Source: Myxococcota bacterium (lineage in GTDB: Bacteria > Myxococcota_C > UBA6777). Taken from it: a stretch of 64,000 bases of DNA. Every line of letters starts with the position of its first letter. Positions within the stretch are counted from its first letter, which is position 1. Location: positions 46,607-110,606 of the forward strand of contig JAKLKB010000003.1 in assembly GCA_023150835.1 (NCBI GenBank), written 5' to 3'. The notes beneath the pieces were generated by a model. The model was not told the origin of the DNA and did no database searches. It saw nothing but the letters and a program-made list of their open reading frames with translations. This document shows, one piece after another, positions 14,591 to 64,000 of this stretch. The position numbers and the translations under genes are program-made.

Positions 14591-14646
14591 CGAAGATGCC
14601 CTCCCTCCGTTTTCAACAGTTTTGCTCCGCTGAGGAGGTTTTTTCC

Positions 14647-20679: not shown

Positions 20680-20723
20680 GACGAAATCCGCCCTTTTCTT
20701 TACACGAGCGAAACAGCCCGATA

Positions 20724-20835: not shown

Positions 20836-20982
20836 TGGGGACTTCTGCACCCTGCGTTACTCACCCAACACCATCCCACATCCCCCCATATCCCGCTTTC
20901 TCCCTCTTGACATCACCCCTCCACAAAAAGCAAAACAAGACAAGCATTTGGATCAACCGCGATCTTCAAAGAGAGGGCAAGG

Positions 20983-22701
20983 ATGTTCGATATCGTGATT
21001 CGCAATGGGTATATCGTCGATGGTACGGGCGCTTCGGGCCGCGTGGTGGATATCGCCATCGAAGGCGAAAAGATCGTCGCGATGGGTGCAGCGTTGGGGC
21101 CGGGAAAGCGTGAGATCGATGCAACGGGGTTTTTGGTGACGCCGGGCTGGGTGGATATGCACACCCATTACGACGGGCAAGTGACATGGGACCCTTATTT
21201 GACCCCCTCAAGCGAACACGGCGTGACCACCGTCGTGATGGGTAATTGCGGCGTGGGTTTCGCTCCCTGCCGCAAAGAAGACCGTGAATGGCTGATCAAC
21301 GTCATGGAAGGCGTCGAAGATATCCCGGGATCCGCTCTTTCCGAAGGCATCAAGTGGTCATGGGAAACCTTTCCCGAATACATGGACGCTCTCGCAGGCG
21401 AAAAGCACGCGATCGACTTCGGAACGCAGATCCCCCACAGTGCCTTGCGCGGCTGGGTCATGGGCCAAGACAGTTCCGAACAAGACGACGCCACCCCCGA
21501 ACAGATCGAAGCGATGCGCAAGCTCGTCACCGAAGCCCTTCAGGCGGGCGCATTGGGCTTTTCCACTTCGCGCACTTCACTTCATCGCACCGCCAAAGGG
21601 GTCTTGGTCGCCGGCACAAACGCCAAACGCGACGAACTCTTTGGGATCGCACAAGCCCTCAAAGAAACGGGCCTTGGGGTCTTTGAGTGCGCAAGCGAAC
21701 ACCTTTCTGTCCCCGAAGAATTCTTGTGGATGCGCGAGATGGCGCAAACCATCCAACGCCCCGTAGTTTTCAATCTCTCTCAAACCGATCAAGCCCCCCA
21801 TCTTTGGCGTCATCTGCTTGAAACGCTCGAAGATGCCGAACAAAAAGATATCCCTGTTTACGGCCAAGTCGCAGGACGCGCCATCGGCATCGTCATGAAC
21901 TGGCAAGCCACCGTTCATCCGTTCGTTTCCTATGAAGCGTGGATGCAGATCATGCAACAGCCTTGGGAAGTCAAACGCAAGCGCGTCATGGACCCTGCCT
22001 TCAAAGCAGAGCTACTCGCCCAAGAACCTTATGATCTGTGGGAGTTTGCCAACTTCGTCACTCGTTCGTTTCACAAGATGTTTCCGATGAAAGATGGTTC
22101 TTCCTACGAGCCCGACATCAGCGAAAGCGTTGCCGCACGCGCCAAACGAGAAGGCCGCTCTCCCAAAGAGATCGCCTTCGAGATGTTGATGGAAAACGAC
22201 GGCAACGGGATGATCTACTTTCCGCTGTTCAACTACACCGACAACAGCCTCGATCACCTCCACACCCTCCACAGCCACCCACGAACGCTGATGGGCCTTA
22301 GCGATGGAGGCGCCCACTGTGGCGCGATCTGTGACGCAGGGATGCCCACCTTTATGCTGACCCATTGGACCCGCGACCGCAAACGCGGCGAAAAACTCTC
22401 GCTCGAATACATGGTGATGCGCCAAACCAGTCAAACAGCCCGATTCTACGGCCTTGAAGATCGCGGTGTCCTTGCCCCGGGATACCTCGCCGATATCAAC
22501 ATCATCGACTACGACAACCTCCGCCTTGGCGTCCCCCAAGTCGTCTATGATCTCCCTGCGGGCGGAAAACGCTTGCTTCAACACGCCACAGGTTACAAAG
22601 CCACCCTCAAAAGCGGACAAATCATCCTCCAAGACGGCCAACCCACGGGCGCTTTGCCCGGAAAACTTATCCGTGGATCTCAACCCGCCCCCCACAAATA
22701 A
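20983..22701 (+). CDS. N-acyl-D-amino-acid deacylase (D-aminoacylase), amidohydrolase superfamily
   Basis: The N-terminus MFDIVIRNGYIVDGTG...TPGWVDMHTHYDGQVTWDP is the characteristic D-aminoacylase metal-binding start (HxH). Length 572 aa. RBS GAGAGGG. Confidence 0.85.
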   Translation: MFDIVIRNGYIVDGTGASGRVVDIAIEGEKIVAMGAALGPGKREIDATGFLVTPGWVDMHTHYDGQVTWDPYLTPSSEHGVTTVVMGNCGVGFAPCRKEDREWLINVMEGVEDIPGSALSEGIKWSWETFPEYMDALAGEKHAIDFGTQIPHSALRGWVMGQDSSEQDDATPEQIEAMRKLVTEALQAGALGFSTSRTSLHRTAKGVLVAGTNAKRDELFGIAQALKETGLGVFECASEHLSVPEEFLWMREMAQTIQRPVVFNLSQTDQAPHLWRHLLETLEDAEQKDIPVYGQVAGRAIGIVMNWQATVHPFVSYEAWMQIMQQPWEVKRKRVMDPAFKAELLAQEPYDLWEFANFVTRSFHKMFPMKDGSSYEPDISESVAARAKREGRSPKEIAFEMLMENDGNGMIYFPLFNYTDNSLDHLHTLHSHPRTLMGLSDGGAHCGAICDAGMPTFMLTHWTRDRKRGEKLSLEYMVMRQTSQTARFYGLEDRGVLAPGYLADINIIDYDNLRLGVPQVVYDLPAGGKRLLQHATGYKATLKSGQIILQDGQPTGALPGKLIRGSQPAPHK

Positions 22702-33084: not shown

Positions 33085-34119
33085 ATGTTTGAATCTCTGC
33101 GCCTAGCGGCCTTGGGAGGGTTGCTCAAACTGCCTCCGTCGATCCAACGCACCCTCTCAGGTCCGCCTTCCACCGATGACGGCGTGGCTTTGGACCCACA
33201 ACACCACTGGTTGACTTACCTTGCCTCACGCTTCCAAGCCGACGACACTCCCCCCCCCCACAAGATCCCCCATCAGCGCCACGAACACGAGATCGCAGCC
33301 GCATTTCTTTCAGGCCCACGCCCCACAAGTGTCCGCGTCGAGGAACGCTTCGTACCACTCGAACAGCGCACACTCGCGATGCGGATCTATCGGCCTCAAC
33401 ACCACGATGGAACGGCGCTGTTTTACCTTCACGGGGGCGGTTTCGTGATGGGAAGCATCGTCGGACAGGACGGCGTTTGCGCACGCATCGCAGAAAAAGC
33501 CCGATGTACCGTCATCTCATGCAGCTACCGCCTCGCTCCAGAACACTTATTCCCTGCGGCTCATGCGGATGCCGCTGAAGCCTACGCATGGATAGTTGCA
33601 AATGCCGAAGAGATCGGCATCGATCGCTCGCGTTTGGGTATCGGCGGAGATAGCGCAGGTGGAAACCTCGCAGCTTCCGTCGTCAACACACGCCGCAAAC
33701 AAAACCTCCCGCTTCCCAAGGTTCAAATGCTGCTCTACCCTGTCGCCGACGCCACAAAAGAAGCCCTATCCTACGGACTTTTTGGCGAAGGTTCTTTTCT
33801 CTCACAAAAAAGAATGCGGTGGTTTTTCGATCAATACATCCCCGAACGCGCACAACGCACAGATCCCCGAATCAGCATACTCCTCGAACCCGATCTATCG
33901 GGCGTTTCGCCTGCGTTGATCGCGACCGCAGGTTTTGACGTCTTGCGGGATGAAGGCATCGCTTACACCCAACGCCTCCAAACATCGGGCGTTTCTGTAC
34001 ATCACCTGCACTTTCCGCATCTCACACACGGCAGCTTCAATTTTGCAGGCCGATTGCCTGCCGCTGCGCAAGCCCTTGATCGTGTATCCCAAACACTTTG
34101 CGACCTCTTCACCGCCTAA
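33085..34119 (+). CDS. Alpha/beta hydrolase fold-3 (HSL family) esterase/lipase
   Basis: An HGGGF oxyanion motif (LFYLHGGGFVMGS) and a GDSAGG nucleophile elbow. Confidence 0.8.
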   Translation: MFESLRLAALGGLLKLPPSIQRTLSGPPSTDDGVALDPQHHWLTYLASRFQADDTPPPHKIPHQRHEHEIAAAFLSGPRPTSVRVEERFVPLEQRTLAMRIYRPQHHDGTALFYLHGGGFVMGSIVGQDGVCARIAEKARCTVISCSYRLAPEHLFPAAHADAAEAYAWIVANAEEIGIDRSRLGIGGDSAGGNLAASVVNTRRKQNLPLPKVQMLLYPVADATKEALSYGLFGEGSFLSQKRMRWFFDQYIPERAQRTDPRISILLEPDLSGVSPALIATAGFDVLRDEGIAYTQRLQTSGVSVHHLHFPHLTHGSFNFAGRLPAAAQALDRVSQTLCDLFTA

Positions 34120-34124
34120 TATCC

Positions 34125-34240
34125 GCCTATTGTGTGATCGAATGATGTAGGGGCAGCCCCCCGTGGCTGCCCAACCACAGGGCGTTTACAACGGATCACA
34201 TCGACCTTTTGTGTACACTTCTCTTGGATATCGTCTATCC
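34125..34240 (+). repeat. Palindromic repeat family 2, copy 2 (6 nt after esterase stop)
   Basis: tgtgatcgaatgatgtaggggcagcc-ccccgt-ggctgcccaaccacagggcg...ttggatatcgtc. Confidence 0.75.
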
Positions 34241-34316
34241 GCCCAAACGGAGATCACACATCTAGGATGAGGATATCCCAGAGGAGCGAGCAACCCCCAC
34301 AAAAAAGGAGCGTATC

Positions 34317-35006
34317 ATGGAGTTCTTCGATCCCTTGTTTCTTGCATCAAGCGGTTCTTCCTTTGGCATGGAGATCTTGCAAAAAGTGCTTGCGTGGTTG
34401 ATCGGCTTGTCGATCTCCGCAGGTGTCGTCTGGTTTTTGGCTTACCGCGAGATGATCGGAAAAAGCTTCTTTGGCCGCATTACCTTTTCGTACATCGGCC
34501 TCGAAGATGGCGAAAACAGCGAGCGGATCACCATCGACACTCTGCTCGACAAGCACCTCAGCGACGTGTGGCTCAACAATCGCATCCTTTTGCGCAGCAT
34601 CGTCTCCTGCGCCCAACAATGCAACGAATCCGCACCGCTTGTTGTCCCCGAAAAACATCACCTCTATCACGTCACCTCCGGCCTCCGCCACCAGATCTCC
34701 GAGCGCTACTCGGACGGTCTGATCGATCGCGCCCTTGGCTTCGAGATCCGCAAAGAAGAACTCTTGATCGCCCTGTGCTTTAGCGCTTCCAAAGCCGACG
34801 GTGTGCAAAAACTTCGCGCCCTCGTGCTCCATCCTCAGATCCTCAAAAAGATCGGCGAACAGGCCGATGCCTTCGAGAAAGCCAATCCAAAACAAATCCC
34901 CTTTATCAAGGCCCTCCAAGCCGCCTACAAGCGATGGCAACAAGAAGAAAACGATCCCAAAATCGATCGGCTCATCACCAAAGTCCGCGTGTACCGAAGA
35001 AAATAA
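34317..35006 (+). CDS. Membrane-anchored hypothetical protein
   Basis: 229-aa ORF with an N-terminal TM helix (VLAWLIGLSISAGVVWFLAY). No recognisable domain. Confidence 0.5.
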   Translation: MEFFDPLFLASSGSSFGMEILQKVLAWLIGLSISAGVVWFLAYREMIGKSFFGRITFSYIGLEDGENSERITIDTLLDKHLSDVWLNNRILLRSIVSCAQQCNESAPLVVPEKHHLYHVTSGLRHQISERYSDGLIDRALGFEIRKEELLIALCFSASKADGVQKLRALVLHPQILKKIGEQADAFEKANPKQIPFIKALQAAYKRWQQEENDPKIDRLITKVRVYRRK

Positions 35007-35166
35007 CCCCACCCCACAGATCCAAACGGCGCCCATCCGATCCATTACGTTGGCTCCCAAGTGCCTCTACCGTTTGCCAGATGGTACGGCTATGCTTATC
35101 TTCCTTGCTGCTTTGCGGCACGAAGTGGACGCTCTCGTCCCCCTACAACCAAGGAGATCTTGCGTA

Positions 35167-35745
35167 ATGACTCGCTTGAGTGATGACTTTGCCTCCGAAA
35201 GTATGCGATCTTTCCTCGAACGCAAACTACTCGAAACCCGAACCCTGCTGATCTACGGACGCATCGATCAAAGCGTCGCCGAAGACGTCACCCAAAAGTT
35301 GCTGCTGTTATCGGCAACCTCCAATGATCCGATCAAGCTGTTTATCAACAGCCAAGGCGGACACGTCGAGTCTGGCGACACCATCTTTGACATGATCCGC
35401 TTCGTCAAACCGCGTGTAAAGATCATCGGCACAGGATGGGTGGCCAGCGCTGGGGCGTTGATCTACTCCTCCGTCCCCCTCGAAGATCGCTACAGCCTCC
35501 CCAACACCCGCTATATGCTGCACCAGCCCCTCGGCGGCGTGAGCGGCCAAGCCTCCGATATCGCCATCGAGGCCCTTGAGATCGTCAAGATGCGCGAACG
35601 CCTCAACAAATCCTTCGCCCAACAAACAGGACAACCTCTCGAAAAGATTACAAAAGATACCGACCGCAACTTCTGGATGTCCGCCGAAGAAGCCAAAGAA
35701 TACAAACTCGTCGGCCACATCATCCAATCCATCGACGCCCTCTAA
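35167..35745 (+). CDS. clpP: ATP-dependent Clp protease proteolytic subunit (orphan ClpP paralog)
   Basis: It aligns end to end with E. coli ClpP. The catalytic Ser sits in GWVASAGA, the His in MLHQPLGG and the Asp in KDTDRNFWMSAEEA. The start is MTRLSDD at 35167 with an AAGGAG RBS; the longer upstream ORF extension is rejected. No clpX or clpA is adjacent. Confidence 0.85.
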   Translation: MTRLSDDFASESMRSFLERKLLETRTLLIYGRIDQSVAEDVTQKLLLLSATSNDPIKLFINSQGGHVESGDTIFDMIRFVKPRVKIIGTGWVASAGALIYSSVPLEDRYSLPNTRYMLHQPLGGVSGQASDIAIEALEIVKMRERLNKSFAQQTGQPLEKITKDTDRNFWMSAEEAKEYKLVGHIIQSIDAL

Positions 35746-35848
35746 CCCCCTCCTCTCCGCCTTCCTCGTCTCCTGCCCCTTTCCTTTCGCTTGTTATTTC
35801 GTACATTCCCTCCGACACTCTACCCCACCCAAAAAGGGAACAACGACC

Positions 35849-37039
35849 ATGCAAACCCGACCTCTCTTTGCCCTCTTGTTTGTCCTTGTTTGGCCTCTCC
35901 AAGCCCGCGCACAAACGCCTCCACCCACACCAACACCCCAAACTTCCGCACAAATGGAACAAGCCATCCAACAAGCACGCCTTCAACACATCCAAGACGC
36001 GCAAAACAAAGACAAACAGCTTCAACGCATCCGAAAAGCCGAAACAGCCCTCCAAGCCAAACAAGCCCTCGGCACCTGCAAAGCCATCCAACTCCCCTTC
36101 GTCAAACCGATCGAACTCTGCATCAAACCCCACGAAGGCAAAAGCACACTCTTCGTCAACGGCTCCCCCAAACCCGTCCCTGCCGCCTTCCACGGCGCGG
36201 CTCTTGGACTCAAAAAAGCCTATCGCGTAGCCAAAGCCAAAGCCGATATCCTCGCACAAAAATTATCCCACCAAGGAAAAAAACGCGCAGAACAAGTCGC
36301 AAAGCACTCCGCTTCACTTTTCGACAAAGCTCTTCAAAAATACCGAAAAAAAGCCACCGACCTCGCGCAAAAACTCGCCAACTCCCCCGAATGGAAACAG
36401 CGACTGGCCGCGCAACTCGCAATCGTCGCGATATCCAAAGTCGACGAAGCCACCAAGCTCGCCCAACAACAGATGCAAACCAAACTTCAACGCACCCTTG
36501 AGCTTTACACCCATCCCGAAAAGATCCGCGACCTCGCGCTCAAAAAACCCACATCAAAAAAAGGCGAAACCTTCGACAACAAGGCTGTCCTCCTTGGTGT
36601 GGGGTTGATTATGGCCCATCAAGCCGCCCGTATCGCCTTCGTCTGCTGGCAACAAAGCGGCCCACAAAAGCGCGCTTGCTTCAACCGAGAGATCGCAACG
36701 AGTATGCGCGATGCCCTGTTTGATGTCCTCGCGCTGCTCGTTCGTACCGCGCTCGATGCCCATGTGATCGCCCCGCTCTCTCACTCCCTCGCAGCCGCCC
36801 TTACCGCACACCGCCTGCTTTCGACAGCCAGCATCGGCTCCGCCGCCTATCCCACAGCCTACGCTGCCGCCAGCATCGCCTTTCACGGTATGCTCTCCAC
36901 CCTCTACGAAGCCCTCTTACGCCCCGAATACAACAAGCTCTTTGAAACGCGCCTTCGCTCTCCGATCGAGCGCTTCAACAACAAACTGATCCGCCAACTC
37001 CCCGAAGCCGCATTCAAATGTTGGGGTTCATGCAAATAA
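35849..37039 (+). CDS. Secreted helical / coiled-coil hypothetical protein
   Basis: Signal peptide MQTRPLFALLFVLVWPLQARA, then a Lys/Ala/Gln-rich helical sequence. Function unknown. Confidence 0.55.
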   Translation: MQTRPLFALLFVLVWPLQARAQTPPPTPTPQTSAQMEQAIQQARLQHIQDAQNKDKQLQRIRKAETALQAKQALGTCKAIQLPFVKPIELCIKPHEGKSTLFVNGSPKPVPAAFHGAALGLKKAYRVAKAKADILAQKLSHQGKKRAEQVAKHSASLFDKALQKYRKKATDLAQKLANSPEWKQRLAAQLAIVAISKVDEATKLAQQQMQTKLQRTLELYTHPEKIRDLALKKPTSKKGETFDNKAVLLGVGLIMAHQAARIAFVCWQQSGPQKRACFNREIATSMRDALFDVLALLVRTALDAHVIAPLSHSLAAALTAHRLLSTASIGSAAYPTAYAAASIAFHGMLSTLYEALLRPEYNKLFETRLRSPIERFNNKLIRQLPEAAFKCWGSCK

Positions 37040-53355: not shown

Positions 53356-53904
53356 ATGAAGACACACACAACTCCTGCCTCTCTTCGCCTTCTTGCCACA
53401 CTCGGCCTTTGTATGGCGTTGTTTTTCTTTGGCAAACGCTGGTATCAGCAAGCCGAGACCTCATCGCTGCTTTGGCTACTCGGCCCCACCACGCAGGCGC
53501 TGTCTTGGTGGTCTGGAAAGACCTATCACTTCGTGGTGTCTGAAGGATTTTTACGAGAAGATGGCGCTTTGCTGATCCACAAAAACTGTTCCGGTTTTCA
53601 GTTTTTTTTACTTGCGCTGCTTGTCTCATGGTCTTCTCTGCTGTATCACGCTCGCTCTTTTCGTACAGGCTTTGTTCGCTTTTTGATCAGCAGTTGTGCA
53701 GCGTATCTGTTGACCTTGCTTGCCAATACCGCACGCATTCTTTCCGCTGAACACTTGGCTGCCATGCCATCGATCGCGTCACACATCGCCGCCGACACCC
53801 TTCATCAAAGTGTCGGGATCTTTGTGTACTTCAGCTTTTTGGTGCTCTTTTCTCTTTGCCTTTGGAGTGTACCCGATGAACGTCCCAACCCAACCCCATC
53901 TTGA
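53356..53904 (+). CDS. Mini exosortase/archaeosortase-family-like integral membrane protein (182 aa)
   Basis: It starts at MKTHTT with an AAAGAGG RBS and has about 5 TM helices. NCSGFQ lies in one helix and LLANTARIL in the next, giving the exosortase-type Cys and Asn-x-x-Arg arrangement. The gene end overlaps the next ORF by 29 nt. Confidence 0.55.
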   Translation: MKTHTTPASLRLLATLGLCMALFFFGKRWYQQAETSSLLWLLGPTTQALSWWSGKTYHFVVSEGFLREDGALLIHKNCSGFQFFLLALLVSWSSLLYHARSFRTGFVRFLISSCAAYLLTLLANTARILSAEHLAAMPSIASHIAADTLHQSVGIFVYFSFLVLFSLCLWSVPDERPNPTPS

Positions 53905-56900
53905 ACCCGCCGAACCATCTAGGCAACTGGATCTACAAAGCAGCAACCATCCCTACTGGCTATTGCTCAGCCTCACTCTCCCACAAGTCTTGTTGTGGTT
54001 GGCTTTTTTCTATCAATACATCTTGATCCAAAGTCTTTTATCTGACAAGAGTAAAGGCTATTGGGCAGATTATGGAATGCTGATCGGCGCAGGGATTGTT
54101 GGATCGATCTTTGTTGCATGCTTTTTCCGATACAAACGTCATCCTCTTCCTGCATGGCTCGCTCCGCTGCTTTTGTTCGGATATATCGGCCTTCTTTATT
54201 TTTCGATCAAAGATATGCCCCAGCTTTTACCGTTCAACATCCCGCAGTGGATGAGCCAACGAGAAGAATTATCACTTCTTCCTTTTGCTTTCACGATGCC
54301 TGTTCTTTTTCATGCTTTGTTGATGTTGATCGCTTACTTTACGCCGAACCAAGACGAGACGGCCTCTTTCCCTAATTTCTTTTATGCGCTGCTGATCCCG
54401 TTGATCTGGTACTTTTTTATCCAGATCCTTGTGCCGTATTTGCGAACAAAAACGTACCTTTCGGAGCGCCTTTTTCTGATCTTTTTTATCTGCACAACGG
54501 TTTGTTTTTTCTTTTTTCTTTTGCGCGGTGTGCTGTTGGCCCTGCGAAAGAACCAAAAAACATCGCGTTATGCCCCATTCTGGCGTCTTTTGATCGCGTT
54601 GATCTTACCGCTTGCTGGGCTGGTGACCTACAACGCACGCAGCCTTTTTGGAATGCGCGGGATGCACACGCCTCAGATCGTTGGCGAACTCAGCCATCCG
54701 CTTTTCTATCTTTGCGCGATCCTCGCGGCAGGTGCGCTGCTTGCTCCATCTCCGCTGCTTCCACGCGCACGCTTGGCGCTGTTTTCGTTGCGTATGGTCG
54801 TGTATCCTTACACGCTGTTTTTCTTTGTGATCTTCTTGCCTTTCTTGCCTTTGTCGTTGCTTGCGATCTTGGTGATGGGTCTGGGTTTTCTGATGCTTGC
54901 TCCGACCCTGTTGATGATCTTGCACAGCAGGACACTCGCAGAAGAATGGAGAGCGCTTCGCCTGCATTACCGCACAACCCTGCTTGGTCTCGTTGCTGTC
55001 CTTTCCTTTTTTGCCGTCCCCTCTGGCATCCTCACTTATCTGTTCCAAGAACGCGCCACACTCCACCGCGCACTCGCCTATCTTTATCAGCCCGATCACC
55101 TGCGCGTCCAAGCCCCCGATATCTATCCCGCTCTCCTGCGCAACAGCATCGACGCTCTGCGCCAACACCACCAGCGCAGACGTGGACGCCGTTTCGTGAT
55201 CGCGGACGAAAAGCGTGTACCCTTTCTGACTTCTCTTTACAAAAGCATCGTGCTTGACAATATGACTTTATCGCAAAACAAGATCAACGAACTCTCCCAA
55301 ACCTTTTTGGGCAACACTTCTCCCTCCCAAACCACGACTGCTCGCCTCTTCCGCCCCAACAGAGCCTCTCCATCCGCTTCACTTCAGCCCATCCCCCCCC
55401 AAACCACCGCGATATCGCCCCATCAGTCGCGCTCTCCCCAAAGTACCGTCGCTTCGACCTCTCCTCCGCGCTCTCCCCAAAGTACCGTCGCTTCGACCTC
55501 TCCTCCGCGCTCTCCCCAAAGTACCGTCGCTTCGACCTCTCAACCAAACGTGAAGATTGCTCAACCATCCCCTGCGTCGGCCTCCAAGATGTTTACACCG
55601 TCTCCGTCTGTAAGCACCCAAACCGCCCTTTCCGCCACAAGGCCAACTTCTGCCACAGCCGCGACAGCCAGCCCCCACGCAGCCACGCAGCCCACCGTCG
55701 CCGCTGCTCAACCAGCATTTCGCATCACTACACCCAAGATCACACACTTACAAACCAGCACACACTACGATCCAACGATCCACGCTTACAAAAGCACGAT
55801 CCTTCTTCGGATCACGAATTACGGGACTTGGCAGCAAGAATTCTCCACCTCTTTCCAGATCCCGCTCGGTGTTTGGGCGAGTGCCTATGCCCTTTGGATC
55901 GATGGGAAAAAAGTGGACGGTGCGCTCACCGAAAAAAAGGCGACGCTGTGGGTCTATCAACAGATCGTTCGTGCGCGCCAAGATCCCGGCCTGTTGTACT
56001 ACGAAGACGCGACCACACTACGCCTGCGGGTGTTTCCCGTCCTTGCTCGCGAGACACGCCAAACGAGTTTCACGCTGTTGCACAAAGCGCCTTTTTCCTT
56101 TCAGATCGGCGCAAGCACACATCACCTCGACGATAGCCGTGTGCTCTCTCGGATGCAGCGCCCGATCGAACGGCTGTGGGGAGATCACCTGCTGTTCTTC
56201 CCGCACGAACAAAAAGCCAAACTCCCCACGTTGACGCGCAAGCCTTATCTGCACGCGATCCTCGATTGTTCACAGGGACGAAAAAGCCATTATGCCCTCT
56301 ACATCGAACAGATCCGCAAGCTGCACCAACGCTACAACCTCGATCCCACGCACACCCGCGTCACCTTTGCGAACTATCAAGCCCACACCAGCGCTTGGTC
56401 CGCTGACTTGCTCCAACACCTCGAAAGCTATCCTGCCCAAGGCGGACTTTTTCTTGTCCGCGTCCTCAAACGCATCTACCTCGAACACGCCACCCAAGCA
56501 CGCGACTCTTTCCCTGTGGTCGTCGTACTCACCCCTCGCATCCAAGACGCGATCCTCAAACAAAGACTCCAAGGAGTCCCGTTTTTAAGTCCCGACGCTG
56601 CGTCTTTTTATAGCCTTAACCCGCAAGATCGGTTCACACGCCACAGCCTTTACGGTCCCTTACGCGATCAAGAGATCCAAAACACCGATCCTGCGACATT
56701 TCAGCCCTTTTCCTTGGGGACTGTGCGTACATGGCCAGACGCGCAGCATCCTCGCGTATTCTTGCGCAACGATGGACAAGATAGCCTCGTATTGCGCGTC
56801 CCTTACGTGGCTCAGATGCCGCCCACCGCACTTCCCAACGATCCGTGGCAAGCGGGACTTGCGATCTATGGGCGTTGGCTATTGCAACAGCTACGTTTGG

Positions 56901-57178
56901 GGGGACAAGAAAACTGGCTTGCGCAGATCCGTTGGAGTTGGTATGCCCGCATCCTCGGACCTCAGACCTCCTTTACTGTGCTGGAAAATCAAGCCCAATG
57001 GGAAGCCTTGCGCCGAAAACAACAGCAAGTCCTCGCAGGAAAAAGCTTTTTCGATCTGACCGAAGACGAAGGACCACGCCGTGCGGATGAACCGCCGCTC
57101 GGAGGGTTGGTGCTGTTGTTGGGGATGTTCTTCTTCTACTTTCTGCGCAAAACACGCAAAGCGCGGTCCCAGAATTAA
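53876..57178 (+). CDS. Giant polytopic membrane protein with S/P/T-rich repeat linker, large C-terminal globular domain and PEP/MSEP-CTERM-like terminal sorting signal
   Basis: About 10-12 TM helices in the first ~440 aa. 3x perfect SPPRSPQSTVAST repeats. A ~500-aa domain. The final residues ADEPPLGG-LVLLLGMFFFYFL-RKTRKARSQN give a motif, TM helix and basic cluster. The start at 53876 is coupled to the mini-exosortase gene. Confidence 0.65.
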   Translation: MNVPTQPHLEPAEPSRQLDLQSSNHPYWLLLSLTLPQVLLWLAFFYQYILIQSLLSDKSKGYWADYGMLIGAGIVGSIFVACFFRYKRHPLPAWLAPLLLFGYIGLLYFSIKDMPQLLPFNIPQWMSQREELSLLPFAFTMPVLFHALLMLIAYFTPNQDETASFPNFFYALLIPLIWYFFIQILVPYLRTKTYLSERLFLIFFICTTVCFFFFLLRGVLLALRKNQKTSRYAPFWRLLIALILPLAGLVTYNARSLFGMRGMHTPQIVGELSHPLFYLCAILAAGALLAPSPLLPRARLALFSLRMVVYPYTLFFFVIFLPFLPLSLLAILVMGLGFLMLAPTLLMILHSRTLAEEWRALRLHYRTTLLGLVAVLSFFAVPSGILTYLFQERATLHRALAYLYQPDHLRVQAPDIYPALLRNSIDALRQHHQRRRGRRFVIADEKRVPFLTSLYKSIVLDNMTLSQNKINELSQTFLGNTSPSQTTTARLFRPNRASPSASLQPIPPQTTAISPHQSRSPQSTVASTSPPRSPQSTVASTSPPRSPQSTVASTSQPNVKIAQPSPASASKMFTPSPSVSTQTALSATRPTSATAATASPHAATQPTVAAAQPAFRITTPKITHLQTSTHYDPTIHAYKSTILLRITNYGTWQQEFSTSFQIPLGVWASAYALWIDGKKVDGALTEKKATLWVYQQIVRARQDPGLLYYEDATTLRLRVFPVLARETRQTSFTLLHKAPFSFQIGASTHHLDDSRVLSRMQRPIERLWGDHLLFFPHEQKAKLPTLTRKPYLHAILDCSQGRKSHYALYIEQIRKLHQRYNLDPTHTRVTFANYQAHTSAWSADLLQHLESYPAQGGLFLVRVLKRIYLEHATQARDSFPVVVVLTPRIQDAILKQRLQGVPFLSPDAASFYSLNPQDRFTRHSLYGPLRDQEIQNTDPATFQPFSLGTVRTWPDAQHPRVFLRNDGQDSLVLRVPYVAQMPPTALPNDPWQAGLAIYGRWLLQQLRLGGQENWLAQIRWSWYARILGPQTSFTVLENQAQWEALRRKQQQVLAGKSFFDLTEDEGPRRADEPPLGGLVLLLGMFFFYFLRKTRKARSQN
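55429..55545 (+). repeat. 3x 39-bp perfect coding tandem repeat (ctctccccaaagtaccgtcgcttcgacctctcctccgcg)
   Basis: Seen directly. It encodes RSPQSTVASTSPP units in the linker of the target protein. Confidence 0.85.
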
Positions 57179-57202
57179 GCTTGGGTCGGCCCCCCCCTCA
57201 TT

Positions 57203-57448
57203 CCCCCCGGCCAACGGGGGGAAGTTGGAGCAGGCAAAGACGCACCCGCAGAAGTCGTACCTGCAAGAGAGACCACAGCGGCCAACGGGGGGAAGTTGGA
57301 GCAGGCAAAGACGCACCCGCAGAAGTCCAAGTGTTCGGGAACCGCCCGTGTATCGGGACATCGAGCAGCGAACGGACACGCTCACACAACCACAGAAGTT
57401 TACGTAGGGGCGGTTCGCGAACCGCCCGTGTATCGGGACATCGAGCAG
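57203..57448 (+). repeat. Intergenic direct-repeat cluster upstream of the Clp ATPase gene: 2x 48-bp unit (period 71) and 2x 30-bp unit
   Basis: ggccaacggggggaagttggagcaggcaaagacgcacccgcagaagtc occurs at 57209-57256 and 57280-57327. gaaccgcccgtgtatcgggacatcgagcag occurs at 57339-57368 and 57419-57448. The ccccccggccaacgggggg hairpin also occurs at 12636-12660. Confidence 0.8.
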
Positions 57449-57677
57449 TGTTGTCTTTCCGACAGCACAGACGAAGTGTCCGAGTGTTCGGGGTGGGGGG
57501 CCAACCATCGCTTAACAAGGCGCGTATGGGGCGTCGCACAACGACGGGGTGAGGGTGAAACGAACATGGGAGGCCCTCTGGGTACTTGCCAGAACAAGCG
57601 AACCTGCGCAAGATCCATCCGTCCATAAGGCCCGCACCGATCGACCCGACGGATGCGCCCATCTTCACGGAGTTTGG

Positions 57678-60600
57678 ATGAACCCCCAAGACAGCACCCC
57701 CGCCAAAGACACCGCCCCCCAAGAAGCCCAACAAACCCAGATCATCAAGCTCAAGCTGTTTGTTCAAGAACACCACGACGGCCAATTTACCCTCGAAGTC
57801 CTCGGAAAACGCGATATCTGCGTGTACACACCCGACCTCGATCAAGGCCGCGAAGAACTGATGTTGATGCTTGTCGATCTCGTTGAACGCAGCCATCCCC
57901 GACTCCAAAGTAGCTTCCAACCCCCCGAAGATATCGAACACCACACCATCGAGATCCCCCGTGTGGTCTATGTTTCCGATGCTTCGGGACGTAGCGCAAC
58001 CCCAACCAAAGTATCGATGTTCCTTCAACGCGATCGCAAATGGCAACGTCTGTATTTTCCGCGCCTTGACTGCCATTACTGGCTATCGATCGAGGCTCCG
58101 CTCGAAGAAAATGCGATCTCCTTTCTTCAGCAACATCAGTTTAAAAAGATGAGCGATCACGCTCGCCTCAATCAGCGCTATGAGAAAAAAGAATGGATCG
58201 AAGAGTTGGAGATCGAAGCGATCCGTCCTCCCCTCGAAGAGTTTACAGGCCGGTATCTTGGGGTAGATCTGTTGCCGACTCCTGCGGAGCGCAAAGAAGC
58301 CGAAGAAAAAGAAGAGGAAGAAAACGCCCAAAAGCAAGGAAAAAAAGGCAAGAAGCGCCCGAATACACCGACATTTAAGAAGATCGGGATCCCGATCGCA
58401 CAACAAGCCAAAGACAAAGAACTCGAACATGCCTACGGACGGGACAAAGAGATCGAGTCGTTGTTTGGGATGCTGCAAGCCAAAGGCGGCAAAGCCATCG
58501 TACTAGTCGGTCCTTCGGGCTGTGGCAAAAGCGCCTTGTTGTCGGAGTTGGCCTATCGCGTGACGCACCCTGACACCCCCGAAGCCCTGCGCGAACGGCC
58601 TATTTGGTTTGCTGATGCCAACCGCGTCGTCGCAACAGACGGATGGTTCGGCGACTGGCAAAGGCAGTGCCTTGATGTCATCCAAGAAGCCATCGATGCC
58701 GAAGTGATCTGGTACATCGGCGATGTCTTGCATCTGCTTGATGCCGGAAAAAACGTTCGTTCCGAGCAAAACGTCGCGATGATGCTCAAGCCCTATCTTG
58801 CAGGCCGTCGCATCACGGTGATCGGTGAGTGTTCCTCGCGCAACTTTGCACAGCTTGAGTTGCGCGATGTCGGATTCGCCCGTATGTTCAGCCCTTTTCG
58901 CCTCGAAGATCCCCCCCCCGAAACGATCCGCTCCATCCTTCAAGAAGTCTCCAAAGATCTCAAAAAAGAACGCGCCATCGACGTATCGAGCCAAGGCTTG
59001 GACACCACGATGGAACTCAGCCGACGCTTCCAAAGCTCCCAAAGCCTACTCGGCCACAGCGTGGCCTTTTTGCGCCGCCTTGTGGACGACGCTTCCAGCA
59101 CAGAAGCCCCCCCCAAAGAACCACTCGGACGCAACGAAGTGATCGCTCACTTTTGCTCAGAAACAGGGATGCCTGCTTTTTTGGTGCGCGATGATCTTCC
59201 CCTTGATCCCGAAGCGATCTGGATGAGCTTTCGCACCCGCTTGATCGGCCAAGAAGAAGCCATCCGCCGCATGACCGATCTTGTCGCCATGATCAAGGCT
59301 GGGCTCTCTGATCTAGGCCGTCCCCTCGGCTCTTTTCTTTTTGTCGGTCCCACCGGCGTCGGAAAAACAGAGATGGCCAAGTGCCTTACCAGCTTTTTGT
59401 TTGGCCGCGAAGACCGCTTGATCCGCTTTGATATGTCCGAGTTTATCGACGCTTCAAGCGTCTATCGCTTCCTTGGTGACGCCCAAAATGAAGGGAAATT
59501 AATTAGCGCCATCCGCCGCAACCCGTTTTCTGTGCTGTTGCTCGACGAGATCGAAAAAGCCCATCCTGCGGTCTTTGACGTCTTGCTCCAAGTCCTTGGC
59601 GAGGCCCGACTCACCGACGAAGCAGGCCGCACCGCCGATTTCCGAAACGTCGTCGTCTTGATGACCTCAAACCTTGGTGTCGGCACTTTTCGCCGCCAAG
59701 TCGGCTTCGATCAAGGCGATGCGCTGCGCTTTCGCGATCACTTTCTGGCCGAAGCCGAACGCTTCTTTCGCCCCGAATTCTTCAACCGTATCGACTACAT
59801 CATCCCCTTTATGCCCCTCGAAAGCGAAGCCATCCATCAGATCACTGTGCGCGAGATGAACAAGTTCTTGCGCCGCGAAGGCATTCAACACCGCGAACTC
59901 CAACTCCAGATCGATCCGCTCGTCCATCCGTGGCTTGCCGAACGCGGCGTCAACCCACGCTACGGCGCACGCCCGCTCAAGCGCGTGCTTGAACAACAGC
60001 TAACCGCCCCTCTCGCACGACACCTTTCGAGCCAACGCGGCCCGCACATCGGACAGATCGGCGTCCAACCCGAAAAAGAAGCCCTTCAATTTACCAACCT
60101 CGGACAATCCAAACGCCAAGACACCCAACAAGCGCGAGCCACACTTCAAAAGCTGCTCGAACAGATCGGACTGGTTCGCTACCGCGCTCAGCGTTGGTCG
60201 CGTACCACCCTCTTTCGCGAACTCCACCAAAAAGTCCGCTTGTTTGATCGCCTCAGCCAGTCCCCCAACTTTTGGAACGATCACCATACCGCCGAACAAT
60301 ACGTCAAAAACATCGACGCAGAGCGCCAAGTCATCGAACAGTACCGCAGTTTTCAAGAGATGATCTGCTCCATCGAAGACCTCGCTTACGAGACTTATTA
60401 CGATCGCTCCGTCTCACAAAAACACACACTCGAAGAAGAACTTGCGCAGGCCGAAAAAAGCCTTGAAGCCTTGGAGTTTCAACTGTACGGTCAGCGCTTC
60501 CAACACCCCAACGCAGCGACCCTGTACTTTGAACCCGGCAAAAGCGCCGCAGGATTCTTGCGGGCCCTGCTTGAAACCTACATCGAGATCGCCATCGAAC

Positions 60601-61325
60601 GCGGGTGGCAAGTGACGGCCTACGCTTCGCGCCGCGTCCTCGATGAAGAACTTGAAATCCAACAGATCCCTGTCGAAGATCCCCCTCTTCCCGAGTCCTT
60701 GGCTGCTTTAGAAGAGCTTCAAAAACGCAAAGACCGCCGTCCCAACAACGCAAATGCAAGCGCAAATGCAGCTCCCTCCGAACAAGAAAACGAGCAAGAA
60801 TCTATCCGCCGCGCCAACGAACAACGCCTGCTCGAATTCAAAAAGCGCAACTCTCTCGAATACCGCCGCTGGCTCTGGCGCGAGCTCGATCCCCCCGATC
60901 TCGCAGAGTCCGAGATGCGAAAACGCCGCATCGAGCGCCTACTTGATCAGCTTTACTCTTTTAGCGGCGACGAATACCCCCGTGTCATGGTCTTTGAAGG
61001 CCAGCACGCCGCAAGCCTACTCAACCACGAAAGCGGCCTCCACACCCGCATCGCCCGCGATCAAACCGAGCAAGTTAAAGTCTTTTACGCCGATCAGCGG
61101 CCCTCCAAAAAAGAACAACTCCTTCATCCCGTCGATCTTTCCGAGAAATGGAGCACACAACGCCTTCGCACCGCCCAAGAAAACAAAAACCTCTTGATCG
61201 ATCATGTCCTTGATACGCACGTCTACCTCGAACCCCGCCTCCACCTTCTTTATGCTCGCATGATGCGCAGCCACATCTACGTCAACACCTTCGGCGAACA
61301 AGCCGCCAAGTGGCTTCGCACCTAG
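57678..61325 (+). CDS. Giant ClpA/ClpB-family double-AAA+ ATPase (about 1216 aa) with novel N- and C-terminal domains
   Basis: D1 has Walker A GPSGCGKS and a ClpB-like LKPYLAGRRITVIGECS block, but its Walker B is IWYIGDVLH, with no DE. D2 has Walker A GPTGVGKT, Walker B VLLLDEIEKAH and ARPLKRVLEQ. The D2 loop RRQVGFDQGD parallels the ClpA IGL / ClpX IGF ClpP-docking loop. The start MNPQD at 57678 has a GGAG RBS. Confidence 0.8.
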   Translation: MNPQDSTPAKDTAPQEAQQTQIIKLKLFVQEHHDGQFTLEVLGKRDICVYTPDLDQGREELMLMLVDLVERSHPRLQSSFQPPEDIEHHTIEIPRVVYVSDASGRSATPTKVSMFLQRDRKWQRLYFPRLDCHYWLSIEAPLEENAISFLQQHQFKKMSDHARLNQRYEKKEWIEELEIEAIRPPLEEFTGRYLGVDLLPTPAERKEAEEKEEEENAQKQGKKGKKRPNTPTFKKIGIPIAQQAKDKELEHAYGRDKEIESLFGMLQAKGGKAIVLVGPSGCGKSALLSELAYRVTHPDTPEALRERPIWFADANRVVATDGWFGDWQRQCLDVIQEAIDAEVIWYIGDVLHLLDAGKNVRSEQNVAMMLKPYLAGRRITVIGECSSRNFAQLELRDVGFARMFSPFRLEDPPPETIRSILQEVSKDLKKERAIDVSSQGLDTTMELSRRFQSSQSLLGHSVAFLRRLVDDASSTEAPPKEPLGRNEVIAHFCSETGMPAFLVRDDLPLDPEAIWMSFRTRLIGQEEAIRRMTDLVAMIKAGLSDLGRPLGSFLFVGPTGVGKTEMAKCLTSFLFGREDRLIRFDMSEFIDASSVYRFLGDAQNEGKLISAIRRNPFSVLLLDEIEKAHPAVFDVLLQVLGEARLTDEAGRTADFRNVVVLMTSNLGVGTFRRQVGFDQGDALRFRDHFLAEAERFFRPEFFNRIDYIIPFMPLESEAIHQITVREMNKFLRREGIQHRELQLQIDPLVHPWLAERGVNPRYGARPLKRVLEQQLTAPLARHLSSQRGPHIGQIGVQPEKEALQFTNLGQSKRQDTQQARATLQKLLEQIGLVRYRAQRWSRTTLFRELHQKVRLFDRLSQSPNFWNDHHTAEQYVKNIDAERQVIEQYRSFQEMICSIEDLAYETYYDRSVSQKHTLEEELAQAEKSLEALEFQLYGQRFQHPNAATLYFEPGKSAAGFLRALLETYIEIAIERGWQVTAYASRRVLDEELEIQQIPVEDPPLPESLAALEELQKRKDRRPNNANASANAAPSEQENEQESIRRANEQRLLEFKKRNSLEYRRWLWRELDPPDLAESEMRKRRIERLLDQLYSFSGDEYPRVMVFEGQHAASLLNHESGLHTRIARDQTEQVKVFYADQRPSKKEQLLHPVDLSEKWSTQRLRTAQENKNLLIDHVLDTHVYLEPRLHLLYARMMRSHIYVNTFGEQAAKWLRT

Positions 61326-61717
61326 CCGCACAAGCAAAGTCAAGGATTCATCTAGCTCAAGGCTTCTACGAAGACCACAGGCAATCCATCGCAAATAGGG
61401 GGATGTTCGAGATCTTGAGCAAGATGTTCTCCCAAAGAAAGCGCTGAAAGATAATCGACTTGGATTCCAACGACTTGGATGGGGACTCGTACATATCTAT
61501 CTCCACGCCCCTCTGTCAATCTTCCTGTTCCCGCTTGCCCTCGTTTCTAGCGTCGCTCCTGCCCACCGCTCACCTCCACGATAATCTTGACAAAAAAGGC
61601 AAACCGTCCTATCCATCGAAACACATCGGGTTTTGCTGTGCTTTTCTTCCAAGAAATCCAACAGCGACCACGCACCGAGAAACAATGGACTTTTTTGTCC
61701 GATAAAGGAGCCCCACC

Positions 61718-62164
61718 ATGAGCGAAAACCAAGAGAGCGGATATCCTGGGAGGAGAGAAAAACAAGTCAAGTACAAAGCAATGCCGTTGGTGTATTCATG
61801 TTCGGGTTGTTCGAGTGTTGCGCAGTTGGCGAATGCGTTGGCAGTGCGACTGGATCGAGAAGAACTGGCCGAGATGTCCTGCATCGCGGGGGTGGGTGGC
61901 GGTGTCAAAGCGTTGGTCAAAACAGCCAAGTCCCAAAGACCGATCCTTGCGCTCGATGGTTGCCCGTTGCATTGCACTCTTCATTGCTTGGAACAACAAG
62001 GCGTCGAACCCACGGTGCATGTCGATCTGTCGACTTTTGGCTTGCGCAAACGCTTTCACGAAGACGCGCTCCCCGAAGAACAAGCCTATGCTTGGGAACA
62101 AGCCATCGAACCCGCTCTTGAACAACTCAAATCTCCCCCGATCGAGCGGGCCAAAAGCGCTTAA
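61718..62164 (+). CDS. DGC-domain-like cysteine-rich putative zinc-binding protein
   Basis: YSCSGCSS ... LDGCPLHCTLHC gives a central DGC motif and conserved Cys/His. The family assignment is from memory. Confidence 0.45.
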   Translation: MSENQESGYPGRREKQVKYKAMPLVYSCSGCSSVAQLANALAVRLDREELAEMSCIAGVGGGVKALVKTAKSQRPILALDGCPLHCTLHCLEQQGVEPTVHVDLSTFGLRKRFHEDALPEEQAYAWEQAIEPALEQLKSPPIERAKSA

Positions 62165-62185: not shown

Positions 62186-62629
62186 ATGGAATGCCAAGTC
62201 TGCTTCAATCGCAATCTGTACACCACTTTTCACACCCTGTGGCTGCGTTACATCCGTTGGGGCGTGGCGCGCTCCCGTCTGACGCCTCTGCTGTATCCCT
62301 TCGAGATGCTGCTCAATCCGCTGTTGTTGGCTTCGGTTCTTTGGCTGTGGACGGGTTGGTCTTGGCTGTGGGGTTGGTCGCTGTTGTTGATCAACCTGCG
62401 CGATATCAGCCAATGGTGGATACTGCGTGGAAAGCATCGGTGGTTCTGGGTCTGGATACTCGGCCCGTTTCGCGAGATCGTGTACTCCTGGCTTGCGGCA
62501 CCTTTCTACCACACCGTCCAATGGCGCGGACACACACTGCGCGTCGGCGCTGGAACTCATCTCTTCGTCGTCTATCCACCCCAAGAACGCACGCAAGAAC
62601 AACCCCAAGAAGCCCCCAAACGCTCGTAG
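62186..62629 (+). CDS. Hypothetical Trp-rich membrane protein
   Basis: 147-aa ORF with 2-3 TM helices. It lies downstream of the DGC protein with a 20-bp gap. Weak support. Confidence 0.35.
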   Translation: MECQVCFNRNLYTTFHTLWLRYIRWGVARSRLTPLLYPFEMLLNPLLLASVLWLWTGWSWLWGWSLLLINLRDISQWWILRGKHRWFWVWILGPFREIVYSWLAAPFYHTVQWRGHTLRVGAGTHLFVVYPPQERTQEQPQEAPKRS

Positions 62630-62906: not shown

Positions 62907-63311
62907 CTAAGCGGACAGACCGGGGGATGGGGTTCGTTCGGGGTTGAGCGACATACGGCTGTGGGGGAGTTCTTGGTCACGGATCTTTTGCAAAGCCCGG
63001 CACATCGTGGGTTTGCTGACGCGAACCTTGGCGCACGAGTAGAAGTCTTCGCAAAGGGCTTCGAGGGTGGCTTCGGGTTTGTTCGCGACGATCTGGCGAA
63101 GTGTGGATAAACTGCCTTGATCGATGCGGGGTTGTGGGCCACGACGATAATCTTTGGGTTGAAGGTGGCCTGTATCACGGAAACGCTTGAGCCAATTTTG
63201 GACGGTGGCCAAGCACACACAAAAACGGCGGGCCAACTCACGTTGCGAGCCTTCACCGTTTTTGTAAGCATTGATCACACGGATACGCAGATCATTGGAA
63301 TAAGGACGCAT
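62907..63311 (-). pseudogene. IS630/Tc1-mariner family transposase N-terminal (HTH) fragment; DDE domain missing
   Basis: MRPYSNDLRIRVINAYKNGEGSQRELARRFCVCLATVQNWLKRFRDTGHLQPK is the typical IS630 ORF-A HTH region. The ORF ends after about 135 aa, and no DDE-encoding continuation appears in any frame. Confidence 0.55.
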
Positions 63312-64000
63312 GGAAAACTCCTTGTGGATCGGATGCAGGGGTGGAGAGTCGCGAAAGCCAAGCAGCGACGTGAGGAGTCGGGCTTGGCTTGGCGAGCGAT
63401 GGGAGGCGTTGCGAAGATATTTTTTCGGAAAATGTTGTGCTTCGGCGATCTTTTGCGATAGCAACGGTCGCCCATCTCACAAAAATCAAACCTTGTGTGG
63501 CTTACTTCGTTTGAAGCAGTCGCCGCTGGTTTGGATACGCTTATGCGTCCAAAAAGCCCAACAACACAAAAGAATCGCTTTGGAGTGTGTTTTCAGCGAA
63601 CACTTTTCCTCGAAACGACACAAAAATATCGAAACCAACGCCGTCTTGAAACGACAGCCTCAGCCCTGCGGGTTCAACTTCCCCTCTCTCCCGCGATTTA
63701 CGGCGTAGAGGAAGTGGAAAACGCTGGGTGCTTTTGACAAAGAAACAAAACCACGTGGAAAAAGCCCGCAACGCAAGCCTTCCACAAAAAACCAACGAGC
63801 CAAAACATAAAAAACCAAAGAACCCAAGAGATCAGAGAATTCGATCCCGATATACGTCCTGCGACGTCAACTTTCCCTCCGATTTGAGCGTGGTGTGCGG
63901 TTGCAAACACCGAAGCATCGGCACAACACAAACCAGCGTAGAGAAAGTGGATGGCGTAGGATCGCTTTTCCAACCACCCGTCGATACGGGTCAGGGTGTG

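Follow-up and report, generated by a model that had tools for sequence, protein, structure and literature searches.

The genes at the locus

We analysed a stretch of 64,000 nt from a Myxococcota bacterium (hereafter the window; GenBank assembly GCA_023150835.1, contig JAKLKB010000003.1, positions 46,607 to 110,606 of the forward strand) and, within it, a gene that we call gene A. Its product is an atypical Clp/Hsp100 ATPase with two AAA+ modules, D1 and D2 (Table 1). We are confident of its architecture and family identity: an N-terminal domain with a predicted HicB-like fold is followed by D1, D2 and a C-terminal module derived from release factor RF2. Gene A is the first of three paralogues (A, B and C), and the reading that we favour, with a probability of about one half, is that it encodes a subunit of a mixed-ring remodeller made of the three paralogues, Clp-derived and non-classical, and driven by D2.

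On the + strand an uninterrupted open reading frame (ORF) runs from a GTG at 57549 to 61325. The ATG at 57678 is the biologically likely start, since a GGAG lies 8 nt 5' of it and a database protein 97% identical to the product (P0001) begins at the same ATG. The ORF reported in the initial annotation is thus real, and the 1216 residues given there are the codons including the stop; the product has 1215 amino acids (aa). In the Pfam scan, AAA_2 was found at residues 548-707 and ClpB_D2-small at 714-788, together with weak P-loop matches only in D1 (residues 253-298) and PCRF at the C-terminus (residues 851-983, 27.3 bits, cutoff 24). When the product was compared with the PDB by phmmer, D1 (232-462) and D2 (517-784) aligned with ClpB, ClpC and ClpA, D1 falling on residues ~150-390 of ClpB and ClpC; the top match was T. 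thermophilus ClpB (1qvr, E=1e-89). The assignment to the double-AAA+ Clp proteins is therefore sound, and so is the remark that Clp_N and UVR are missing: neither Clp_N (PF02861) nor UVR gave a Pfam match in gene A, while canonical homologues in the same search carry Clp_N. The nearest NCBIfam models are those of ClpB, ClpA and ClpV, with scores that reach roughly a third of their curated cutoffs (TIGR03346 ClpB, 360 against 1232; TIGR02639 ClpA, 343 against 993; NF008263, 279 against 1350; all below).

Table 1. Positions in the window of gene A, of its modules and motifs, and of the other features discussed
Feature	Positions	Strand	Basis
Gene A, 1215-aa atypical Clp/Hsp100 double-AAA+ ATPase	57678-61325	+	ORF, Pfam, PDB phmmer, 97%-identical P0001, ~28 full-length homologues
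N-terminal domain (aa ~20-190), HicB-antitoxin-like beta-beta-beta-alpha predicted fold, in place of Clp_N	57735-58247	+	fold prediction
Charged Glu/Lys-rich linker ending KKRPNTPTFKKIG, like the ClpC N-domain/D1 junction NTPTLDSLA	58248-58388	+	family consensus KKRPPTPTL, ClpC alignment
D1 AAA+ module	58365-59087	+	alignments to ClpB, ClpC, ClpA
D1 Walker A, GPSGCGKS (aa 278-285)	58509-58532	+	alignment
D1 pore loop, TDGWFGDWQ, aromatic kept	58635-58661	+	alignment
D1 degenerate Walker B, VIWYIGDVLH (aa 343-352)	58704-58733	+	alignment
D1 sensor-1 strand, VIGECS (aa 381-386, Glu384)	58818-58835	+	alignment
D2 AAA+ module and small domain	59226-60041	+	Pfam AAA_2 E=1e-43, ClpB_D2-small E=3e-14; alignments
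D2 Walker A, canonical	59346-59369	+	
Truncated D2 pore-1 loop, FLGDAQNEGKL (LIGAPPGYVGYEEGGQL in ClpB/ClpA/ClpC); 6-residue deletion, Tyr gone	59469-59501	+	HMMER and MAFFT alignments
D2 Walker B, LLLDEIEKA, canonical	59532-59561	+	
D2 sensor-1, TSN, canonical	59658-59678	+	
RRQVGFDQGD (aa 672-681), ClpC-type hydrophobic-Gly-Phe at the position of the ClpP-docking helix-loop-helix	59691-59720	+	alignment
D2 Arg-finger region, canonical	59766-59795	+	
D2 sensor-2, GAR, canonical	59961-59984	+	
C-terminal RF2-derived module	60099-61322	+	PCRF/RF2 matches, model
RF2-like domain 1, three-helix bundle	60099-60497	+	
RF2-like domain 2, first part	60498-60644	+	
Charged helical insert of ~110 aa within domain 2	60645-60974	+	
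RF2-like domain 2, second part, and domain 4	60975-61322	+	
Stand-alone ClpP paralogue, 22 kb upstream of gene A	35167-35745	+	Pfam CLP_protease PF00574, E=2e-61
Window-specific 343-bp intergenic segment with two two-copy direct repeats	57185-57527		
DGC-domain gene	61718-62164	+	Pfam DGC E=8e-33

The two AAA+ modules

As read from the alignments, D2 is the only conventional motor of the protein. Its ATPase motifs are all intact, and Walker A and B, sensor-1, the Arg-finger region and sensor-2 are invariant both in a family alignment of 29 members (A1) and in the alignment with the ClpB, ClpC and ClpA references. D2 had accordingly been described as canonical, a description that does not hold for its pore, where the tyrosine-bearing pore-1 loop of the GYVG type (GAPPGYVG) is deleted. 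The alignment places the gap at GDA------QNEGK as against GAPPGYVGYEEGG, and the phmmer alignment with the PDB sequences at RFLGDA......QNEGKL as against RLIGAPPGYVGYEEGGQL. The loop is 5-6 residues shorter in every family member aligned. None of 82 full-length family representatives has a G[YFW][VIL]G-type D2 pore loop, and the segment from MSE to Walker B counts 33-34 residues in 72 of them, versus 39 in the references. In ClpAP it is the D2 loops that drive translocation into ClpP, and substrates are processed only if both rings have their pore-loop tyrosines (PMC5540906). The D2 tyrosine loop being deleted in every member examined, the reading of gene A as a ClpA-like processive unfoldase with a canonical D2 is not supported.

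In D1, Walker A is intact and Walker B lacks its Asp-Glu pair, both as claimed in the initial annotation. The D1 alignment pairs EVIWYIGDVLH with EVILFIDELH of ClpB, so that Gly-Asp replaces Asp-Glu, the Walker B Asp becoming Gly and the catalytic Glu becoming Asp. The position (IWYIGD in gene A versus ILFIDE) is degenerate in every A, B and C paralogue aligned. The D1 pore loop of gene A (ATDGWFGDWQRQ where ClpB has AGAKYRGEFEER) keeps an aromatic residue. By class the loop reads KYLGEW in C, near the canonical KYRGEF, GWFGDW in A, and mostly SVVGAW or SYVGQW in B; aromatics are thus retained in C and A and mostly absent from B.

Another change concerns the sensor-1 strand of D1, which reads IGE[CA]T versus IGATT in ClpB, ClpC and ClpA. 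Residues G283, K284 and E384 are invariant in alignment A1; the glutamate, E384 in gene A, is also present in all sequences of the A, B and C alignments, including the paralogues of loci L004 to L007, and a stricter regular expression for its motif was matched by 59 of the 82 representatives. In all three classes it accompanies the loss of the Walker B catalytic Glu. Judging from this pattern, E384 may be a relocated catalytic residue that compensates for the lost one, in which case D1 is perhaps not dead for hydrolysis. For that reason, the proposal that D1 binds ATP without hydrolysing it is to be taken as the default reading and not as a certainty.

The terminal modules

The ~400 C-terminal residues were at first taken for novel. 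Profile searches proved otherwise: taken alone, the last 421 aa matched PCRF in Pfam with E=7e-7 and, in the PDB, RF2 of T. thermophilus with E=3e-5. The PCRF scores of gene A queries were 27-30 bits, for a cutoff of 24, and a second, weak stretch matched GDEYPRVMVFEGQHAASLLNHESGLHTRI of gene A with GIDYAQILV-KGENAYGLLSPEAGVHRLV of RF2. The core motifs of release factors (FW.D, L..Y...A...G[WF], E.G.H and R........D) are conserved in the family, and gene A possesses both the PCRF region and the domain 2/4 fold of a class I release factor. Domain 3, which bears the GGQ motif, is missing: gene A has no Pfam RF-1 match, and the model runs the domain 2 sheet straight into domain 4. Members in which the profile match is split in two have no Pfam RF-1 match either. 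The elements that read stop codons are also lost, the SPF loop having shrunk to ARDQTEQ and the tip of helix alpha5, PGAGGTEA (GxGGxE), having become PGK---SA. With these functional elements of RF2 gone, the module of gene A cannot decode stop codons or hydrolyse peptidyl-tRNA.

A divergent member, P0027 (1000 aa, from an ENA metagenome), clarifies the origin of the module. It aligns end to end with residues 8-361 of E. coli RF2 (E=7e-22), domain 3 included; in it SGAGGQHV has become SQGKG-LR (GGQ to GKG), and the SPF loop and the alpha5 tip are lost as well. In evolutionary terms P0027 looks intermediate between an RF2 fusion and the form without domain 3. Given this full-length alignment with a dead GGQ, the C-terminal module is a genuine RF2 derivative that was inactivated first and that lost domain 3 later, in the clade of the window. 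P0027 seemingly has no HicB-like N-domain.

The N-terminal region had been described as a novel domain of ~300 residues. It is shorter, about 230 aa; searches with the N-terminal 240 aa against Pfam and the PDB found nothing by sequence, and the predicted fold, which is the sole lead, resembles HicB. The structural matches of the predicted N-terminal model to HicB proteins have ~4-11% identity, and there is no Pfam match. The Pfam labels given to neighbouring genes include no HicA toxin partner, and no neighbour family is conserved in 40 related loci.

A three-paralogue operon

The loci or contigs carrying homologues were numbered (L001 and following), and the paralogue classes A, B and C were set by comparing their large ORFs with reference sequences. 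Each of the three proteins is built from the same four parts, i.e. HicB-like N-domain, D1, D2 and RF2-derived C module. In L004 to L007 the genes lie in tandem in the order A-B-C, with gaps of 1-5 nt or overlaps of 1-4 nt. Their products have 1209, 1197 and 1025 aa in L004 (gaps of 5 and 1 nt), 1106, 1113 and 756 aa in L006, a Pirellulaceae metagenome-assembled genome (MAG) in which stops and starts overlap, and 1221, 1236 and 806 aa in L007, from Plesiocystis pacifica SIR-1 (4-nt overlaps); in L005, products of 1143 and 1155 aa are followed by an IS4 element and then by one of 776 aa. Over the AAA core, A and B share 40% identity. The HicB-like N-domain is common to B and C (hhalign, 96% and 97%), and the RF-like C-domain is common to C (97%, without the insert) and B (93%, profile-profile). 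A, B and C are alike in having the D2 pore loop deleted, the Gly-Phe loop (see below) kept, the D1 catalytic Glu lost and the D2 ATPase motifs intact.

A scan of one genome per species with the D1-specific motif FG[DE]WQ[RQ]Q[CT] gave 36 loci, all of them in Myxococcota or in unclassified bacterial, proteobacterial or deltaproteobacterial MAGs; in one of them, from a Myxococcota MAG, the D1 region is 96% identical to that of the window. Among the 29 loci with enough downstream sequence, B directly follows A in 24, and C is there too in 21. Translational coupling, the maintenance of the three classes across two phyla and the complementary aromatics of the D1 pore loops together suggest that A, B and C probably form mixed hexamers.

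In the lineage of the window (L001, in which gene A has ~93% DNA identity, and L002/L003), A is split from B-C by ~4.7 kb that hold the DGC gene, a GT2 glycosyltransferase gene and an IS630-like helix-turn-helix (HTH) remnant. Position 64000 of the window corresponds to 18145 of L001, in which B occupies 18341-21913 (1190 aa) and C starts at 21936 (~1016 aa); by alignment and collinearity, B would start ~200 bp past the end of the window. The IS630-like transposase HTH fragment (HTH_28, HTH_Tnp_IS630; window 62907-63464, - strand) lies before the expected start of B, which fits a separation of A from B-C by a mobile-element-associated insertion.

Such remnants could also be read as the mark of an anti-phage or stress-induced abortive system, in which the AAA+ trio with its dead release-factor mimic would shut down or remodel translation upon infection. 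Besides the broken locus of the window lineage, an Eco57I-type restriction-modification gene interrupts the L002 locus and an IS4 is inserted in L005; RF-like and HicB-like folds, moreover, are both known in conflict systems. We consider this very improbable: PADLOC returned generic AAA-domain matches only (DolB, PDC-M37B), to D2 alone, no defence neighbour is conserved in the 40 loci, the Fapy-DNA glycosylase flank is constant in L001, L004 and L012, and the distribution looks lineage-wide in Myxococcota and not patchy.

To delimit the family, a profile of the RF-like domain was searched against 1.84 billion cluster representatives (clusters at 50% identity). The matches numbered 2768 with a threshold of E<=1e-3, 761 with E<=1e-10 and 68 with E<=1e-30. 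Among the best 150, the full-length proteins (~1050-1200 aa) carry the RF-like domain at the C-terminus, and the shorter entries, matched over most of their length, look like gene fragments. In P0105, a protein of 1957 aa, the RF-like domain spans residues 1621-1946; two fused paralogues, or else read-through in gene calling, may account for this entry. In databases the members go under generic labels ("AAA family ATPase", "ClpA/B family protein", "ClpC"), and no NCBIfam or PADLOC model covers the family, which thus amounts to hundreds of 50%-identity clusters so far generically annotated. The A-B-C operon itself was seen in Myxococcota, including Plesiocystis, and in the Pirellulaceae (planctomycete) MAG. 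Neither a Clp-RF fusion nor a three-paralogue Clp operon was found described in the literature searched, and the survey of release-factor evolution by Burroughs and Aravind does not mention Clp (PMC6514570). Within that literature, the A-B-C family is previously undescribed.

The Gly-Phe loop and the ClpP question

The VGF tripeptide of gene A (residues 675-677), assigned in the initial annotation to the ClpP-docking loop, is indeed at that position. It was aligned with KYVGFNVQD of B. subtilis ClpC, and also with VVGFG of ClpC and with the ClpA-type SIGF; in the PDB alignment of the loop, LGVGTFRRQVGFDQGD of gene A faces VGASELKRNKYVGFNVQD of B. subtilis ClpC. G676 is conserved in at least 90% of the members of alignment A1. 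Over the 82 representatives, x-G-[FLIM] is present in 77 and [VLIM]-G-F in 44, and all three paralogue classes retain the Gly-Phe loop. The IGL/F tripeptide lets ClpA bind ClpP and is required for this binding, and ClpB and Hsp104 are without it (PMC5540906). With VGF kept and the D2 pore loop deleted, the gene A product thus combines a ClpP-docking signature with the loss of the element that feeds ClpP. From their conservation, the Gly-Phe loops could dock the ring on ClpP, a proposal to which we give slightly less than an even chance.

The window encodes a single CLP_protease protein, whose candidate Ser/His/Asp catalytic residues were read from the translation without a reference alignment. 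Its flanks (33085-37039) contain a gene for an alpha/beta-hydrolase and two ORFs without any match in Pfam, and neither clpX nor another AAA+ partner was seen there. The initial annotation was therefore right in calling this ClpP the only one of the window, with no adjacent clpX. The functional link that it drew between this gene and gene A, 22 kb apart, has no support: no ClpP lies within +/-10 kb of the family genes in any of the 40 related loci. Isolated clpP paralogues are reported in Myxococcus xanthus (PMC11423568).

One reading, that of the initial annotation, would be a homohexameric ClpA-like unfoldase, with D1 static and ATP-bound and with D2 threading substrates into the ClpP of the window, i.e. 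a specialised, regulated protease. The conserved VGF and the presence of a ClpP paralogue with a candidate catalytic triad speak for it, and so do the absence of an M-domain, as in ClpA, and a single continuous match to ClpA over residues 206-782. Its probability is low nevertheless, because the pore-1 tyrosine loop of D2 on which ClpAP translocation depends is deleted in all members; in addition, gene A sits in an operon of three paralogues, its score with the NCBIfam ClpA model is far under the cutoff, and the ClpP gene is distant and never a neighbour, isolated clpP genes being reported, as just mentioned, in M. xanthus.

Somewhat less unlikely, though still far from even odds, is a protease-independent remodeller or disaggregase of the ClpB/ClpV kind, in which Gly-Phe would be a ClpC-like relic and the RF2- and HicB-like domains would bind a non-ribosomal client or serve in oligomerisation only. 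The best overall scores are to ClpB, clpP is not linked in the 40 loci, the decoding and catalytic motifs of the release factor are all lost, and there is a precedent in pore-loop-less Clp-like scaffolds, SMAX1 being among the PDB matches. The persistence of Gly-Phe in three classes that are only ~30-40% identical, and in two phyla, argues on the contrary for selection; gene A also has no M-domain for coupling to Hsp70, and a disaggregase needs pore-loop tyrosines too (PMC5540906).

Neighbouring genes and upstream repeats

When every ORF of at least 120 aa in the 40 loci was clustered all against all, the only recurrent neighbours were the AAA paralogues and their antisense shadow ORFs, the next real family being present in 3-5 loci. 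ClpP, adaptor and ribosomal genes were considered as conserved neighbours and rejected, as none of them recurs in this clustering.

The DGC gene follows gene A, as stated in the initial annotation, without being part of the machine: it adjoins the family only in L001, L002 and L008, and is a lineage-specific neighbour (3 of the 40 loci). In L001 a gene of 363 aa with no Pfam match (13770-14861) stands between gene A and DGC; it is absent from the window (61345-61534). The GT2 gene (Glyco_transf_21-type; window 62186-62629, L001 15525-16706) has an internal deletion of 733 bp in the window, with its junction at 62193/62194. This gene is probably a pseudogene in the window, to judge from the remaining 147-aa C-terminal ORF, which has no Pfam match.

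Upstream of gene A, an intergenic region of 499 bp in the window corresponds to 213 bp in L001, which has 57 bp in place of the 343-bp window-specific segment. The direct repeats noticed there earlier exist; they do not form a single array of 250 bp, and consist of two mutually unrelated two-copy repeats, one of 49 nt (at 57208 and 57279) and one of 36 nt (at 57333 and 57413). No further copy was found elsewhere in the window, and no promoter, terminator or Rfam signal in the segment. A regulatory role of the repeats was rejected on these grounds and on their absence from L001. Both the repeats and the DGC gene are lineage-specific, and they do not belong to a regulated machine of the kind first proposed.

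Farther upstream (53720-57178, + strand) a gene encodes a multi-pass membrane protein of 1152 aa that carries a VIT domain; its place upstream of gene A is conserved in the closest relatives only. The protein contains three tandem 13-aa Pro/Ser-rich units, SPQSTVASTSPPR (around 55350-55480), whose copy number may vary, as suggested by overlapping BLAST segments with L001. The long ORFs near gene A are mostly on the + strand. Nearly all 2-kb bins of the window have a negative GC skew, and its cumulative value is -4.8 over the 64 kb.

Proposed mechanism

To our knowledge, Clp/Hsp100 machines have been described as homohexamers that thread their substrates by means of pore-loop tyrosines. The A-B-C family departs from three expectations set by known Clp proteins: it has three co-encoded paralogues, a canonical motor ring without pore loop, and a decommissioned release factor on each subunit. 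In the mixed-ring remodeller that we favour, A, B and C would assemble as mixed hexamers, of which D1 would be the ATP-bound ring for assembly and substrate contact; hydrolysis in D2 would power a remodelling distinct from classical hand-over-hand threading. The RF2-derived and HicB-like modules would recognise the target, most plausibly the ribosome or a ribosome-associated complex, and the Gly-Phe loops may seat the ring on ClpP.

A ribosomal target is attractive because the ancestor of the C-terminal module was an A-site factor, and because the module has been retained in spite of the loss of its parts for catalysis and decoding. We propose only tentatively that the ribosome, or a complex associated with it, is what this module binds, without decoding or peptide release. 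A more specific version would make the family a bacterial counterpart of Cdc48-Vms1: six catalytically dead RF2 mimics would lead the A/B/C heterohexamer to the A site of the ribosome or to its factor-binding site. Stalled nascent chains would there be pulled out or passed on by ATP hydrolysis in D2, perhaps to ClpP docked at the Gly-Phe loops, or else ribosomes that have stalled or hibernate would be split. This version appears unlikely to us as it stands.

Several observations weigh against one or other part of the mixed-ring remodeller. Gene A is alone in 5 of the 29 loci mentioned above, and the mixed assembly is read from gene order only. As to ClpP, the residue before Gly-Phe is often non-hydrophobic, notably in B (T, A, S or P), the docking loop is hard to square with a deleted D2 pore loop, and the family genes have no clpP for neighbour. 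As to the ribosome, release factors have three hallmark functional motifs and none of them is left, so that homology does not imply ribosome binding; the charge of the RF-like domain showed no RNA-binding trend and is uninformative. The possible compensation by E384, finally, bears on the assumption of an inert D1.

If the mixed-ring remodeller is ribosome-directed, it would be a new kind of AAA+ machine and, among natural Clp/Hsp100 rings, the first heteromeric one. Should ribosomes still be the target of the RF2 relic, the family would connect bacterial translation directly with AAA+ remodelling and perhaps with proteolysis by ClpP. Even with another target, it remains a natural experiment on a Clp ring without D2 pore loop, on the use of the ClpP-docking motif and on the replacement of the Walker B Glu by a sensor-1 Glu.

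Comparison with known systems

By sequence score gene A is closest to ClpB/Hsp104 (1qvr, E=1e-89; TIGR03346, 360 bits). It differs from ClpB by the absence of the M-domain and of the D2 pore tyrosine, by a D1 that is not a canonical hydrolase, and by the Gly-Phe tripeptide that ClpB lacks (PMC5540906). The missing M-domain is apparent from a D1-D2 linker of ~55 aa and from the alignment with ClpB, which comes in two stretches that skip it; ClpA likewise is without a long M-domain.

With ClpC and ClpA, gene A shares the same clade of two AAA+ modules, its D2 and D2-small being locally 35-45% identical to theirs; with ClpC it has in common the NTPTL-type junction before D1 and a helix-loop-helix of the same length with V-G-F. 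It differs from both in having neither Clp_N/UVR, nor the Asp-Glu of D1, nor the GYVG of D2, in carrying an RF2-derived domain of ~410 aa, and in belonging to an operon of three diverged paralogues.

As compared with RF2 (PrfB), release-factor domain 1, the domain 2/4 superdomain and the core motifs are common to both; the module of gene A has no GGQ domain 3, its SPF loop is shortened, the alpha5 tip is deleted, an insert of 110 aa is present, and the whole is fused to an AAA+ motor. The predicted fold of the N-domain resembles the HicB antitoxin, and the domain sits at the position of the Clp N-domain, directly before D1, without the C-terminal DNA-binding domain of HicB.

For the way in which the ring may work, the nearest likenesses are Pex1/Pex6 and the proteasomal Rpt1-6, in which diverged paralogues form heteromeric AAA+ rings with one inactive tier. 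The A-B-C family would share with them diverged paralogues, here co-encoded, and one tier without canonical hydrolysis. Pex1/6 and Rpt belong to a different AAA+ clade and keep pore-loop aromatics in their active tier. As for a link between an AAA+ motor and translation, the only comparable case that we know of is the eukaryotic Cdc48-Vms1, a pair active in ribosome quality control. Cdc48 has as its partner there the eRF1-like Vms1 (PMC6514570); the likeness is that of a release-factor-like module associated with an AAA+ motor, and the difference is that Vms1 is unrelated to the bacterial release factors from which the module of gene A derives.

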